Shown: piece after piece, positions 27,276 through 33,600 of the stretch
How the letters are laid out: the number at the start of each line of letters is the position of its first letter
How positions within the stretch are numbered: position 1 is the first letter of the stretch
Assembly: GCA_965261735.1 (NCBI GenBank)
Contig: OZ253470.1
Span: 1,600,001 to 1,664,000 of the forward strand
DNA from: Alphaproteobacteria bacterium
GTDB lineage: Bacteria > Pseudomonadota > Alphaproteobacteria > SHVV01
Direction: 5' to 3'
Length of the DNA stretch: 64,000 bases
Notes under the pieces: model-generated
The model's database searches: none
Told to the model about the DNA's origin: nothing
The model's input: the letters and a program-made list of their open reading frames with translations, nothing else
Position numbers and translations under genes: made by a program

Positions 27276-28424
27276 GTGGATTGATCGGAACGAAAGAGTC
27301 CGATTTGAGATTCCGTATTGTGCGGTGTCATGCGAGTCTGTGCTATGCGCACCGGCATCCATTTTACTGTCACGTCTGGCGACCGTCAGCGATTGCAAGC
27401 TATCGTCGCGGACCCGAAGAGCTCGCAGAAACATGTCTGGCGGGCGCGGATCATCCTGAAGAGCGACGAGGGGCTCGGGAACTCGTCGATCATGGCCGAG
27501 ACCGGCAAGTCCAAGACCTGTGTCTGGCGCTGGCAGGAGCGGTTCATGCACGAGGGTGTCAACGGCTTGCTTCGCGACAGGTCCCGTCCGCCTGGCAAAG
27601 CGCCGATCCCGCCGGAGCGCGTCGCCGAGATCGTCCGCCTGACCCAGCAAGCGCCGCCGCACGAGGCGACCCACTGGACGCTGCGCGCGATGGCGAAGGT
27701 TGCTGGCGTCGCGGCGTCGACGGTCCAAGCGATCTGGAAGGCCCATGGCCTCAGCCCGCACCGCTGGCGGCACTTCAAGCTCTCCAATGATCCCGCCTTC
27801 GCCGAGAAGCTCACAGATATCGTCGGCTTGTATGTCGATCCGCCGGCCCATGCCGTGGTGCTGTCGGTTGATGAGAAATCACAGATCCAGGCGCTCGACC
27901 GCACCCAACCCGGCTTGCCGATGAAGAAGGGCCGCGCCGGTACGATGACCTATGATTACAAACGGCATGGCACGACGACGCTGTTCGCCGCGCTCAACGT
28001 GCTGGACGGTACGGTCATCGCACAGAACATGCAGCGCCACCGCCATCAGGAGTTCATCCGCTTCCTCAACCGCATCGAGCGCGAGGTGCCGACGGACAAG
28101 GCCGTCCACGTCATCCTCGACAACTACGCCGCGCACAAGAAGGACAAGGTCCGCGCCTGGCTCGCCCGCCATCCACGCTGGACCTTCCACTTCACGCCAA
28201 CCTCGTGCTCGTGGCTCAATGCCGTCGAGGGCTTCTTCGCCAAACTAACGCGGCGCAGGCTCAAATACGGCGTCTTCCAATCCGTCGTCGACCTTCAGGC
28301 CGCCATCAACCGATTTGTCCGCGAATACAATGACGCAAACCCAAAACCCTTCATCTGGAAAGCCGACCCCGATCATATCATCGCCGCACGAAACAGAGGG
28401 TTCCAAACGTTGGAATCAATCCAC
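27276..28424 (+). mobile_element. IS630-family element (transposase 27345-28427)
   Basis: CTAGTGGATTGAT...ATCAATCCACTAG ends with TA duplication; VDEKSQIQAL, YKRHGTTTL, ILDNY, SWLNAVEGFF. Confidence 0.95.
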
Positions 28425-28607
28425 TAGGCCGGTTCTCAGCCGGCATCACCGAAGGCTGGCAAACGCGTGAATTCGAGGTGAGACCAGCTACCGGATCATG
28501 AAGCTGGACGGGCGGCGAGTGCTTGAGGGCGACAGCGTTTCTTCTGCCTCGAGCTTCTACCTCGAACGGGAAATCGATCTCGCGGCGACAAACAGGTGAC
28601 CCAGACC

Positions 28608-28805: not shown

Positions 28806-29027
28806 GTAGAAAGTTTCGTCACTTTCGTATATAAGCCCCTTTTGATAACATCTACGCCACTATGTTGTCGGTCGCAGCCCTCGCTGATGAAAATACAACC
28901 ATTGTGCAAATGGTCGCGTTCTCGGATCATTCTTGGCAACTCGAACGTAACTACCCAGGTCTGATTGGCCCGAGCGTTTGTATGTGAGGGATCGTGGGGG
29001 TCCGGGCTGGTAGCGGTGCCGGTGTTC

Positions 29028-30566
29028 TCAGAGGCGCAGTTGGGGGATTAGTTGCATCGGATCGGGATGCACCAGGGTCTGGAGGACGTTCCAGCCTTGC
29101 TTTCGGGCGGTGGCGATGACGGCACGCATTCTGGCGAAGTTGCAGGCACCCCTCTCGGAGCGGAAGCCACCGGAGATCTTCTGGCGCAGCTTGGCCATTC
29201 GGAGGTCACGTTCGGCCTCATTGTTCGTAAACGGCGTGCGCGGGTCGGTGAGGAATCGCAGGCATCCCTCCTTGTGCTTGCGGAGGCGGAGCGCGAGGTT
29301 ATGACCGATGCGGCGTTTCTTTCGTCCGCGCTTGCCGGTCCGGAGCGGCGGCTGCGCCTCGTGGAAGGCGATGGCGTGGTCGAGGATGCGGGCCCAGGCC
29401 CGCGAGATCCGGGCCACCAGGGAGGCGGGCGCGTCGCGGCCGTTCTCACGGGAGAAGCGGGTAGCCCTGTGTGCGCGCTCAAGGAGGCGGTGCATGCTCT
29501 TTGCCCAGTCTTCCTTCTCGATGTCGATCAGGGCCTGGAGTTCGCGCAGGTGATGGGCGTTGCAGGCGCCGTGGCGCACGCCCTTGAGGGTGAAGTAGGC
29601 GGCGTAATCGTCATGGATGAGGATGCCTTCGAGGTCCTTTTCGACATCGCCGCGTCCCGCGCCGATGCGCAGGACGGTCAGGAATGGGGTGCACAGCACG
29701 TGGAGCCAGCGGGTACGGGCGGCGATCCGCAGGCCGGTTTCGTCGAGGTGCTTGACCGGGACCGCTGTGCGGATCACGTCTGCGACATGGGCGAGGAAGG
29801 GCTCGAAGCGCCTGGCGGTTCGCCGGCCCATGGCGGTGATCGTGGCTGTGGAGATGGACACTGCGAAGAGGTCGCTCATGAGTTCGGCCAAGCGCTTCTC
29901 GGGAACGAACTGGGCGTACAGCAGGTAGCTCACCCAGGCGGTGATGCGTGGCCCGTACTGGACCGGGGCGGTCACGCCGTCCGCGAAGACGGCTCCTGTC
30001 ACGGTGGCGCAGGCGCCGCAGAGGCAGCGATGGGCGCGGTGTTCGGTGACCTCCAGGGGGCGTGGCTCGGGCACATCGAAGACCTGTCGACAGACGGGCG
30101 CGCGGTGACGGTCGGCGTCCGACAGCGGTGCGCCGCAGCCCGAACAGGCGGAGGGGTCATGATCCACAACATGGTCCGGGCTCTCGGTCCGCGCCAGCGT
30201 CGTTCCCTTGTGGCCCGGCTGGCCGCCGCTTGGCCTGCCGGACTTGCCGCGCTGGCTTCGGGTGCGCCTCTGGGTTCGGCTCTTCTTGCGCAGGCCGTCG
30301 CTGGCGGGCGGCTTGCTGCTGGTGGTGCTGTCAAGCGCCGCGCTCCGCTCGAGCTCGGCGATGCGGTCCCGCAGGGTCGCGTTCTCCCGCTCGAGCGCGG
30401 CATTCTCCCGGACGAGCGCCGTGGCCAGGCGCAACAGCCCCTGGCCCCATTCCCCGAAGGCCTTGACGACTGTGGTTGCGAAGGATGAGGGGTCAAGAAG
30501 ATCTTGCAGGCACGCGAAGGCCTCGTCATGGGCGGCGAGGTCCTCGTGCCAGCGCGACAGCGTCAC
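29028..30566 (-). CDS. tnpC: IS66 transposase TnpC
   Basis: Leucine zipper, STTSSKPPASD, GGQPGHKG, CSGC/CGAC zinc finger, HLDETG, IHDDY, CNAHHLREL, TNNEAERDLR. Confidence 0.95.
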   Translation of the reverse strand: MTLSRWHEDLAAHDEAFACLQDLLDPSSFATTVVKAFGEWGQGLLRLATALVRENAALERENATLRDRIAELERSAALDSTTSSKPPASDGLRKKSRTQRRTRSQRGKSGRPSGGQPGHKGTTLARTESPDHVVDHDPSACSGCGAPLSDADRHRAPVCRQVFDVPEPRPLEVTEHRAHRCLCGACATVTGAVFADGVTAPVQYGPRITAWVSYLLYAQFVPEKRLAELMSDLFAVSISTATITAMGRRTARRFEPFLAHVADVIRTAVPVKHLDETGLRIAARTRWLHVLCTPFLTVLRIGAGRGDVEKDLEGILIHDDYAAYFTLKGVRHGACNAHHLRELQALIDIEKEDWAKSMHRLLERAHRATRFSRENGRDAPASLVARISRAWARILDHAIAFHEAQPPLRTGKRGRKKRRIGHNLALRLRKHKEGCLRFLTDPRTPFTNNEAERDLRMAKLRQKISGGFRSERGACNFARMRAVIATARKQGWNVLQTLVHPDPMQLIPQLRL

Positions 30567-31228
30567 GGGTCCTCGGCATCGACGGCCATCATGGCGGCCA
30601 GCACCGCGAGGCGTTCGCCCGCCGGCAAGGCCTTGTAACGCCGGCCCCAGTTGGCCGCCTTACGCTTGATGCGCTGGCGGTCGGTGAAGTTCCGGCCTGC
30701 GTAGCTCGCCCAATGCACCCGGTCGGGCGCGAAGTTGAACCACACGACCTCGGTCCGCACCTGGGCCTGGGTCGTCACCTGCAGCGCCAGACTGCGCCAG
30801 CCCGCCAGCATCTCGTCATAGAGCGCCGAGGGATGGCCCGAGACCATCACCTGGCAGGGCAGATCCTTGAGCAGGTCCAGGAGCGCGACATGGTCGACCT
30901 CCTCGAAGTCGAAGCGATAGCGCCGTGCCGAACGGCGGGTCGCGTGCAGATAGGGGGGATCGCTGTAGACCAGCTCCGGGCCCAGAAACGGGAACGAGGC
31001 CAAAAAGGCATGGGCACAGCCATGCACCAACTCGACCGGGTAGTCACAGGCAAAGGCCTCGAGCGCCTGCGCATCGCGGTCGATGCCGATCGAGCGCACG
31101 CCCGTTGGCTTGCGCTTCATCAGCGCACCGCCCCCCAGGTGGCTCTCGATGTAAACGCTGTGCGGCGGCATCAGCGCAATCAGCGCCTGGCACAGACCGC
31201 TCGTCGCCTTCGACCCGAAATATCCCAC
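30563..31228 (-). CDS. Small Dam/D12-like DNA adenine methyltransferase
   Basis: YFGSK (motif X), YIESHLGGGA (motif I), GIDRD, YSDPPY (motif IV), VMVSG, RTEVVWFNF; GTG start with GGGAG RBS. Confidence 0.85.
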   Translation of the reverse strand: MGYFGSKATSGLCQALIALMPPHSVYIESHLGGGALMKRKPTGVRSIGIDRDAQALEAFACDYPVELVHGCAHAFLASFPFLGPELVYSDPPYLHATRRSARRYRFDFEEVDHVALLDLLKDLPCQVMVSGHPSALYDEMLAGWRSLALQVTTQAQVRTEVVWFNFAPDRVHWASYAGRNFTDRQRIKRKAANWGRRYKALPAGERLAVLAAMMAVDAEDP

Positions 31229-31565
31229 GCGCCGCTCCCGTCACACGAGAGCGCAACCCATAGACGCCCGATTCTATGGAGTCAAGAGACGATCAACGAC
31301 GCGGCGGCGGAAACCCGGCCCCGGCGACCACCTACATCATCCTCTCGCGGTCAGGAGCGGGGTACCTGGGTAGTTACACTCGAACGCTACCTCGAAACCA
31401 TGGCGGAGGCCGGTCTGTCGGAGGTCCTGCTGCCGACCCTGCGGGGCGAGGCCGACGGTCGGCTATGGCGTTCGGTGCCAAACCGGCGTTGGTATTCCAA
31501 GCAACGGGGCGAGACGCCTGGCAGCCACGAGGTCGTGCTGATCCACCGCAAGACGGAGGATGCCG

Positions 31566-33600
31566 TTACGCAGCCTCGCCAGCAGTCGCGGACAGAGGCT
31601 CGGCCATCCCAGTGATCCGAGAGAGGCTGTCGACGAGCGGCAGCAGGAACGGAGCGATTGCGCTCGTCACCTCTGCCACCATTTCCCGCACATCCGGCCT
31701 CTGATCCTCCTCCTGTTTGTCTTCGGCCGGCTGCTCCTGCTTGCGGGCCTCGAGGTCGTGCCGGATCACCGCAAGCGCAATCAGCGTCATACCGAACTTG
31801 TAGCGGTCGCGGATCTCGTGCACCCGCCGCGGTTTCTCCTTTACCGCCTGCTCGATGAAGACGTTGTTCATGTTGATCGCATAGTCGAACCTTGCCGGTT
31901 AACGCCCATGACCGCTACATGTAGGGTGCCGCCACTCTCCCGAGTAAAGCTCGGCATAGGTTGGAGCAGAGGTGTCGCCCGCGATGCCGAGCAATGAGCG
32001 GAAGGCGTTGAACGGGTAGAACCGCCTGTTGAATAGGTGCTGGTGGCTAACGCCGTGGTGAGATACCGATCAGCCACGTCTTCAGGTTGGCGAAAACCAG
32101 ATGGATGATCGGCAGGTATTGCTCGGCAACCTCTGGATCACCACACTCGGCAACAGCGAAGTGCTCATAGCCGCGCTTACCGAGGCCAGCATAGCCGCTC
32201 CAATCGTCAGTAACGATCAGCGATCGCGGCGCGACGGTGCTCTCGACGAACCCACAGAGCGACTCGGCGCTACGGTCGAGCACGACGGCGAGCCGAACGC
32301 GTCCGGCATAGCGTCCGTCTTTCCGGTTGTCGAGCTTGGTGCCCGGCTTTCGATGACGCACCTCGATGGCACAGGAGACGGGAACCTTGTGGTGAACACC
32401 ACGGCCTTCCCCACGCGTTCGCCCGCCAACCCAGGTTTCGTCCACCTCAACATGGTTCTTGGGCTGTCCACCGATCCTGTCTTGGTTGGGCCGCACCATG
32501 CCCGAGCGGAGCTTGTGGAGAATTTGAAAGGCCGTCTCGTAGCGCGAAAGACCAAGTTGCCGCTGAAACTGCACGGCGGACATGCCGGGCGTCTGACTGG
32601 CGACCAGATAAGCGGCCCAGAACCAGACGTTCAGCGGAGTGTGGCTACGCTCCATCACTGTTCCCACCGTCAGCCCGGTGTTCTGGCGGCACTTGCGGCA
32701 GCGCAGGACGCCAGGGCGGTTTTCAAAGTGGAACGGCTCTCCCGCCGTGCCGCAGTGCGGGCAGGCAAAGCCGTCTCCCCAGCGGGCTTTCTCCAGGTAG
32801 GCGGCGCAGGCCGCATCATCGGGGAAAAGTCGCTGGAACTCGGGTAGCGAATGCGGGAATGGGAGATCGGCGCGGTCGAGAACATCCATGGCGCGCTCCC
32901 CTATATCCGGGTTGCGCCCATTCTAGCCCTAGTGGGTGTGGGTGTAAACCGGATAGGCAAGCGCCGAACACCGCCGAGTTCTCGTCGGTGCCAGGTGGCC
33001 GCTTGATCCACATTGCGGTGAACTTGTCGAAGACTGGGTCCCGGGTGCCCCAGTCCTTCTCCCAGACCTCAACCGGGGTGGGCACAGCCAAACGCGTGTC
33101 GTCCTGCGCGTCCTTGCCGGTATCCGATCCCGGCTTATCCGGCTTAGGCAGCGGTGGCTTCGGCGTCGGCGGCTGCGCCTCGCGTTTCGCCTTCACCGCC
33201 AGCATAAAGCGATTGACGAACGGCTCGATACGGCTCGGGTCCATGACGTACGCTTCGTACACCATGATATCGTCGATCTCCGCTTCCGGCGGCAGGGACA
33301 TCGACAGCGTGAATTTGCCCTCGAACAGGGTGGGGCTGCGCCAGTTCTTGGCCGGCATGAACTCGCCATCGACCACTTGGAACAGTTTCATCTGGCCGGG
33401 TTGCTCGTCGCGCTTGAAGTAGTCGTTCTCGGCGTCGGTGACAAATGCGATGCGGGTCTGCGAATTGATGTGCGCATCACGCTGCAATCCCTTTCCGGGC
33501 TCACGGTCCTTGAAGTGGAATTTGCTCGGGAACCGTACGCCCTCCCATTCCTTCTCGACCGCTTCGACGGCGTAGGGCTTGGATGGGTTGGCGATGCGGA
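31566..33600 (-). pseudogene. C-terminal part of a large hypothetical protein split by IS1595
   Basis: ...KRPPGTDENSAVF | DYAINMNNVFIEQAVKE...RYKFGMTLIALA...VTSAIAPFLLPLVDSL continues across the IS. Confidence 0.7.
31891..32961 (-). mobile_element. IS1595 copy 4, degenerate
   Basis: Reverse complement of copy 1 with a frameshift near 32060, a ~30-bp deletion near 32033 and a 5-bp deletion in the right IR. Confidence 0.93.

Follow-up and report, generated by a model that had tools for sequence, protein, structure and literature searches.

A tnpC-only IS66-type insertion sequence with a fixed, portable Upf31-type gene cassette ahead of its transposase

Upf31 of the IncP-1beta plasmids is a Dam-like protein whose function has only begun to be studied. 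According to Elg et al. 2025 (PMC11997246), Upf31 failed to bring back GATC methylation, as judged by negative DpnI and MboI digests, and its expression in ER2796, an E. coli strain free of methylases, gave no modification detectable by SMRT (single-molecule real-time) sequencing. The same text reports autorepression by a hybrid Upf31 (0.09 versus 4.76 XylE units) that required the C-terminal domain; the plasmid-destabilising phenotype of Upf31 needs this domain as well, and a contact with KorB is predicted through it (PMC11997246). Here we describe a gene that, by full-length sequence similarity, belongs to the Upf31 family and resides inside an insertion sequence (IS). The element occupies 2431 bp, positions 28947-31377, of a 64,000-nucleotide stretch of the genome of a sponge-associated bacterium (contig OZ253470.1, positions 1,600,001 to 1,664,000), which we call the window. 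It belongs with the tnpC-only IS66-type elements and carries, ahead of its transposase gene, a fixed and portable cassette of the Upf31 type.

The terminal inverted repeats of the element, GTAACTACCCAGGT and its reverse complement, pair at 14 of 14 bases, and the sequence ACTCGAAC flanks them on both sides as an 8-bp target duplication. Inside the repeats the coding strand holds exactly two open reading frames (ORFs) of at least 50 amino acids, both on the minus strand, which meet in a 4-nt overlap (plus-strand TCAC at 30563-30566, a GTGA stop/start on the coding strand). The second of them, tnpC, encodes a DDE transposase of the IS66 type, with matches to PF03050 (E 2e-41; 142.7 bits, cut-off 23.1), DUF6444 (4.3e-10) and NF033517 (5.6e-85; 285.7 bits, cut-off 180). 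This transposase, together with the terminal repeats and the 8-bp duplication, places the element in the IS66 family. The original prediction for this locus, made from the sequence of the window, had proposed an IS66 element with perfect repeats and an 8-bp duplication around two genes joined by a GTGA overlap, and all of these features were recovered.

The element is an active, mobile insertion sequence, because identical copies carry different duplications and an empty site can be seen. The copy number, which the prediction had proposed to determine, is three full copies at 100% identity in the genome of the window (5.03 Mb, one contig), flanked by the 8-bp duplications GATAATTC, ACTCGAAC and CCTCCTGG, and one shortened copy. 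The latter (L004, G000:C1:2583885-2586259) is without the terminal 56 bp at the small-gene end, including one inverted repeat; it retains the promoter and the gene pair and presumably can no longer move. One contig of a public sponge metagenome run (X1) joins position 28938 to 31378, skipping 2439 bp. Since this length equals the element plus one copy of the duplication, the contig represents the empty site. In four public runs compared with the window, contigs from DNA and RNA libraries break exactly at 28947 and 31377, and their flanks vary. Overall, the element was found in 20 of the 24 listed public runs, from eight studies, several labelled sponge metagenome.

By sequence comparison the transposase belongs to the tnpC-only branch of IS66, the ISBst12-like group of ISfinder. 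The canonical three-gene layout is absent, with no tnpA or tnpB among the ORFs inside the repeats, and the arrangement also departs from the tnpC-only layout in the second, conserved gene ahead of tnpC. The nearest TnpC relatives (54% identity in G402, 49% in G540 and 44-48% on Bradyrhizobium and Octadecabacter plasmids) are one-gene insertion sequences of 1547-1605 bp with repeats GTAACTGCCCAGGT or GTAACTCCCAAG, each with a perfect 8-bp duplication, and they contain neither a match to the small protein nor tnpA or tnpB. Matches of TnpC on plasmids reach at most 48% identity; they include Geobacillus elements annotated as ISGst1 and ISGka4, and the top two, those of Bradyrhizobium and Octadecabacter, are without tnpA and tnpB. 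A search of 400 same-class genomes gave a TnpC match at E 1e-30 or better in five other genomes. Because the nearest relatives are one-gene elements with nearly identical repeats, the small gene was added to a tnpC-only element. The proposal that it stands in place of tnpA and tnpB is thus abandoned.

The alignments of these relatives begin at residue 42-47 of the window TnpC, so the first 45 residues are specific to the gene-carrying lineage. This N-terminal extension of approximately 45 residues is 60-82% conserved in diverged gene-carrying members and absent from the tnpC-only relatives. A further tnpC-only relative (L205, in G658) measures 1775 bp with repeats GTAACTGGTCAGGTAGT; its flanks agree only after a one-base shift (CCACCACG and CACCACGG), and its true ends may lie one base off.

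The small protein aligns with Upf31 of pBP136 (NC_008459) over its full length, with 43% identity across 222 residues (E 5e-64). The similarity includes the C-terminal domain, in which W194 aligns with W198 of Upf31; tryptophan occupies position 194 in 48 of 57 relatives. The pBP136 gene (675 bp, L202:25336-26010) adjoins the resolvase-type parA of the plasmid. Relatives at 40-55% identity occur on 191 plasmid records, 134 of them conjugative, and include a gene beside traD/stbB on a Xanthomonas MOBF plasmid; 30 viral contigs, many of them ~35 kb, carry relatives at up to 51% identity. The family is large: a word-indexed search returned 3790 proteins at E 1e-3 or better from 4383 candidates, and representatives at 50% identity numbered 530 at E 1e-30 or better, 2400 at 1e-10 and 5608 at 1e-3.

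The fold of the small protein is that of the D12-class methyltransferases, without their target-recognition domain. A GxG motif at residues 32-34 (G32, G34) and DPPY at residues 90-93 are separated by ~56 residues on a Rossmann fold, and a basic helical pair (residues 181-199 and 203-219) follows the core. In an alignment of 57 sequences G5, H23, D90, P91, P92 and H113 are invariant, with K7, E28, G32, G34 and Y93 nearly so. The AlphaFold (AF2) model, with a predicted local distance difference test score (pLDDT) of 92.3, finds its best fold matches in DpnM, E. coli Dam, Mcbe1 and T4 Dam at template modelling (TM) scores of about 0.5. When the family profile is aligned to DpnM (E 2.8e-9), profile residues 2-68 fall on DpnM 16-80 and residues 81-159 on 183-266, leaving approximately 100 DpnM residues, the recognition domain, with no counterpart. 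The window protein matches no Pfam family at E 0.01 or better, and its match to TIGR00571 (Dam) is weak (1.1e-5, residues 85-155, 25.3 bits against a cut-off of 114.85); 50 of the 57 aligned relatives match PF02086 at E 0.01 or better. The original prediction had noted a spacing of ~55 residues, a basic C-terminal tail and a missing target-recognition domain, each of which agrees with these results. Its view of the product as a minimal Dam-class enzyme holds as far as the fold is concerned. A DDE_Tnp_IS66 match (1.2e-09) was also obtained for one sequence of the 57 in the alignment, in which the small gene may be fused to tnpC or read through into it.

The small gene recurs together with IS66-type transposases. 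Stretches encoding a relative of the small protein number 462 in species-representative genomes, and the best 80 of these (85-100% identity), chosen by their match to the small gene, were analysed. The pairing, whose conservation elsewhere the prediction had left to be looked for, is present throughout: the window's TnpC type, which we call T1, lies downstream on the same strand in 80 of 80 loci. Among these loci, selected as they were by the small gene, its ORF is intact in 78 and an intact tnpC adjoins it in 67. In the genome of the window, all four tnpC genes of this type are preceded by the small gene. The 80 loci come from long-read metagenome-assembled genomes (MAGs) in which tens of copies are often present. 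Their labels are Alphaproteobacteria, Dehalococcoidia, Longimicrobiales and Tectimicrobiota, and binning errors in these labels are possible. Copies with 99% nucleotide identity occur in MAGs labelled Alphaproteobacteria and Dehalococcoidia (L020, L050-L055 and L085 versus L006-L049), and copies at 84-90% in Longimicrobiales and Tectimicrobiota MAGs. This distribution reflects either recent transfer between phyla that share a sponge host or mis-binned contigs. The element is absent from all seven genomes of the window's own family and from all 40 relatives searched, and a phylum sample of 400 genomes held a full-length family member in only two, at 43% identity.

The same small gene also stands ahead of other IS66-type transposases, which we call T2, T3 and T4. 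Metagenome contigs hold at least 498 stretches that encode relatives; 80 were kept for analysis, with a small gene 64-73% identical to that of the window, and its ORF is intact in 79 of these loci, again selected by gene match. In 60 of the 80 the downstream gene encodes T2, a 483-residue IS66-type transposase 30-32% identical to the window TnpC. The others have T3 (~23% identical; two loci), T4 (one), a DDE_5 gene (one), nothing recognisable despite sufficient room (three) or a contig end (nine), and in four (L135, L141, L146 and L173) an IS1634-like gene with a DUF4277 N-terminus follows as a nested insertion. In L141 the IS1634-like gene sits after a truncated T2 tnpC. The TnpC types are mutually 20-32% identical. 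T1 has the GTGA overlap, and in the 60 T2 loci the two genes lie 4-68 nt apart. The T2 elements measure 2247-2340 bp and end in repeats GTAACTACTCACCC. Perfect 8-bp duplications flank four of the 29 T2 loci with both ends (L124, L130, L142 and L155), and 7 of 8 positions agree in L168; the remaining loci lie on short metagenome contigs with unmatched flanks.

Comparison of these elements shows the cassette to be of modular origin. Nucleotides 137-812 of the T1 element, the cassette, are 70-74% identical to T2 elements, and nucleotides 1006-2293 are 65% identical to the tnpC-only element of G402. The ratio of gene distance to tnpC distance is ~0.56 within T1 and ~0.30 between T1 and T2. A quick maximum-likelihood tree of 74 family members places every IS-borne gene in a single clade (Shimodaira-Hasegawa-like approximate likelihood ratio test support, SH-aLRT, 100), which adjoins a group with the Xanthomonas plasmid gene; pBP136 Upf31 falls in the tree's other half. 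The T1 genes form a clade (99), and T3 is nested in T2 with weak support (88). The simplest reading of these sequence relationships is that a plasmid- or phage-type gene was captured once and that the cassette then passed among IS66-type lineages, and they suggest recruitment into at least three to four transposase lineages. Descent of the T1 and T2 cassettes from a common ancestor, with many losses, was considered and is disfavoured by the distance ratio and by the nearer tnpC-only relatives, on a quick tree with several weak inner forks. A T2-like tnpC-only relative, 52% identical, was also found (L210).

These data bear on whether the gene is a neutral or host-directed passenger, picked up by chance and without a part in the life cycle of the element. 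Such cargo has precedent, since an insertion sequence with a methyltransferase passenger, IS220 of the IS1380 family, is on record (PMC11891212, citing Siguier et al.), and the tnpC-only relatives transpose without the gene. An extra gene is indeed present, as in passenger-carrying elements (tIS). However, one cassette goes with four TnpC types sharing only 20-32% identity, the gene accompanies every tnpC of this type in its own genome, and its ORF remains intact in 78 of 80 T1 and 79 of 80 metagenome loci, all selected by gene match. Pairwise ratios of nonsynonymous to synonymous substitution (dN/dS) among diverged T1 copies lie at 0.12-0.30 in the small gene and at 0.15-0.51 in tnpC, and comparison of these sequences shows that the small gene is under purifying selection. 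Conservation across transposase lineages and low dN/dS argue for a role in transposition, and we consider a chance passenger highly improbable. Because the same cassette occurs in several unrelated IS66 branches, the small gene is probably a built-in control gene.

The region upstream of the small gene suggests what such control might act on. We compared 94 unique upstream regions, on which the promoter assignment rests, and 88 of them contain TTGACA-N-CATAG-N10-CTATG(CT). The palindrome arms are 83-100% conserved versus 27-60% for the 10-nt spacer, and a palindrome of this kind arises in 1.3% of mononucleotide shuffles. With 17 nt between them, TTGACA and TATGCT (TATGGG in the window) are spaced as a -35 and a -10 box, which puts the palindrome within the promoter. 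The window palindrome is the sole match in 64 kb (expected 0.00), and across the whole genome the longer pattern occurs solely at the four copies of the element, with no occurrence of a control pattern. The CATAG palindrome is also present upstream of the Xanthomonas plasmid gene (55% identical) and of one gene on a viral contig (51% identical). The Xanthomonas gene additionally has CTATGCTGCAG twice upstream. Prophage-borne members (L215-L238, on viral contigs, 40-48% identical) have another upstream region, with repeated GTGCTG(C/G) and no CATAG palindrome.

A hairpin lies in the leader between the -10 box and the start codon. Across 46 T2 leaders the pairing of an 8-pair helix stands at 85%. 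Two of its positions show compensatory and G-U changes, and its covariation score was reached by 0 of 500 shuffles. RNAalifold found no consensus structure on mixed T1 and T2 leaders; the helix was counted on the T2 rows, and T1 was folded separately. The arms read GATCC...GGATC in T2 and GCTCTCG...CGGGAGC in T1, the pairing being kept and the sequence changed. This hairpin may serve translational control or as a second site for the protein.

From these features, and by analogy with Upf31, we propose that the small gene is an autoregulatory accessory gene that throttles the transposase operon, a model to which we give about an even chance. A tnpC-only insertion sequence has acquired a self-contained cassette of promoter with putative palindromic operator, leader hairpin and Upf31-family gene, and the transposase gene, placed directly behind the cassette gene, would be read from the cassette promoter. 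The protein would bind its own promoter, most likely at CATAG-N10-CTATG and probably as a dimer, and repress it as Upf31 does. Entry into a cell without repressor would then permit a burst of transposase, which would be held low afterwards. Some methyl transfer, aimed by the operator or a partner, may be retained, because the S-adenosylmethionine (SAM) and DPPY motifs are fully conserved. A predicted complex of TnpC with the small protein scored 0.00 and gives no evidence either way on binding.

Several points weigh against this model. Binding and repression by the window protein are extrapolated from Upf31, and the CATAG palindrome is not found ahead of pBP136 upf31 or of the other prophage genes examined; since the pBP136 upf31 promoter is without it, the operator is assigned by analogy only. 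The right palindrome arm is also the -10 box, and its conservation could partly reflect promoter function alone. A simple consensus promoter scan returned no sigma-70 site within the element. In three RNA libraries contigs cover the element (23-26 of 30 bins), but contigs alone cannot prove transcription, strand or level. Finally, a pure repressor would not be expected to have invariant catalytic motifs.

The conserved motifs would be explained if the protein were an active orphan DNA adenine methyltransferase, of relaxed specificity because it has no recognition domain, that shields the DNA of its carrier (plasmid, phage or chromosome) from restriction after transfer. Among IS-borne unique proteins DPPY is present in 102 of 102 and GxG in 101 of 102, D90, P91 and P92 are invariant in all 57 aligned sequences, and the fold is of the Dam class. 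The settings of the relatives also agree with such a role, comprising the 191 plasmid records (134 conjugative), the Xanthomonas MOBF plasmid and the ~35-kb viral contigs, as does the presence of near-identical elements in MAGs from sponge communities rich in restriction systems, the labels of these MAGs spanning four phyla. Yet self-protection would bring a 2.4-kb insertion sequence little gain, and at position 71, a putative SAM contact of motif III, 37 of 57 relatives have Asp and the IS clade has Cys. In addition, the studied homologue Upf31 gave no SMRT signal in ER2796 and none at GATC (PMC11997246). The proposal of the original prediction that the transposon methylates itself or its host stays a conjecture in view of these Upf31 results. 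We regard a shielding methylase as rather unlikely.

The same catalytic conservation is compatible with a self-encoded analogue of the Dam control of IS10 and IS50, in which the protein would methylate adenines of the -10 palindrome or of the element ends, and transposase would be made, or the ends used, only on unmethylated or hemimethylated DNA after entry or replication. Both palindrome half-sites hold adenines and overlap the -10 box, the cassette appears to have been recruited into at least three to four transposase lineages, and Dam-dependent repression of IS10, IS50 and IS903 is established (PMC9296519). On the other side, no methylation is known for the family (PMC11997246), the palindrome is not in the terminal repeats (its one match in the window is at the promoter), and the scheme is wholly conjectural. 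We judge it decidedly unlikely.

A broader conjecture, quite unlikely in our view, is that Upf31-type proteins are methyltransferases without a recognition domain that are aimed by an operator or partner, and that the IS enzyme methylates its own promoter palindrome as a self-contained epigenetic switch. If so, the transposase would fire only on freshly arrived or replicated, unmarked DNA, and the cassette would be a portable module of transposition control taken up by several IS66 lineages. It could also explain why Upf31 alone, outside its plasmid context, showed no methylation.

The coordinates of the element and its parts are collected in Table 1. The neighbourhood is dense in insertion sequences, with an IS630-type transposase at 27318-28427 on the plus strand (DDE_3 2.5e-21, plus helix-turn-helix domains) and an IS1595/ISXO2-type transposase at 32047-32889 on the minus strand (PF12762 2.5e-23, zinc ribbon 5.5e-14).

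Table 1. Parts of the IS66-type element in window coordinates
Feature	Position	Strand	Support
Target-site duplication, left copy, ACTCGAAC	28939..28946		Empty-site contig joins 28938 to 31378
Terminal inverted repeat, tnpC end, GTAACTACCCAGGT	28947..28960		Contigs of 4 runs stop exactly at 28947
tnpC, IS66-family DDE transposase, 512 aa, GTG start	29028..30566	-	PF03050, DUF6444, NF033517
Upf31-family Dam-fold protein without recognition domain, 221 aa	30563..31228	-	Motifs, profile, model, Upf31 alignment
Leader hairpin, between -10 box and start codon	31231..31254	-	Folding -18.1 kcal/mol, z -2.78
Promoter-like TTGACT-17-TATGGG with putative operator CATAG-N10-CTATG (31259-31278)	31257..31285	-	Upstream-region comparison
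Terminal inverted repeat, small-gene (methylase-gene) end	31364..31377		Reverse complement of GTAACTACCCAGGT
Target-site duplication, right copy	31378..31385		Matches left copy

These results define a large and widespread IS66-type subgroup with a fixed accessory gene and tie that gene to Upf31. The spread of the cassette over transposase lineages is a natural experiment in which a Dam-like protein has been useful to a transposon. With one promoter, one palindrome and two genes, the element is a compact system for studying whether methyltransferases that lack a recognition domain act as regulators, as enzymes or in both roles. Surveys of methylomes and of restriction-modification, notably those of sponge symbionts, may be misled where such genes are automatically labelled 'DNA adenine methylase'. 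Searches of the full-text literature turned up no account of a Dam-like or Upf31-like gene in an IS66-type element; they covered papers and not the ISfinder, REBASE and TnCentral databases.

Among described systems, the tnpC-only IS66 elements ISGst1 and ISGka4 share with the window element DDE_Tnp_IS66 and DUF6444 domains, the absence of tnpA and tnpB, 8-bp duplications and GTAAC... termini, and the nearest tnpC-only relatives (44-54% identity) have an almost identical repeat, GTAACTGCCCAGGT. Those elements are 1.55-1.78 kb long with one gene, whereas the window element is 2.43 kb, with a promoter-gene cassette between repeat and tnpC and a 45-residue extension of TnpC. Similar to Dam, DpnM and T4 Dam, the small protein has a Rossmann core with an N-terminal GxK, GxG and DPPY, but it lacks the recognition domain of ~100 residues and has no Pfam match at E 0.01 or better. 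In the IS1380 family, IS220 likewise holds a methyltransferase-like gene within its repeats (PMC11891212). The window element differs from it in IS family and in that its gene is a conserved, selected cassette common to several transposase lineages, a pattern that speaks for a function within the element. IS10, IS50 and IS903 offer a possible parallel in tying promoter adenine methylation to the timing of transposition (PMC9296519); they rely on host Dam at GATC, whereas the window element would bring its own putative enzyme. The closest counterpart of the small protein is Upf31 (upf31.0) of IncP-1beta pBP136/R751, which has 224 residues versus 221, a Dam-like core without a recognition domain and basic C-terminal helices with a conserved Trp (PMC11997246). 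Upf31 stands alone on a plasmid backbone, has another promoter sequence and is predicted to act via KorB, whereas the gene in the window heads a transposase operon inside an insertion sequence.

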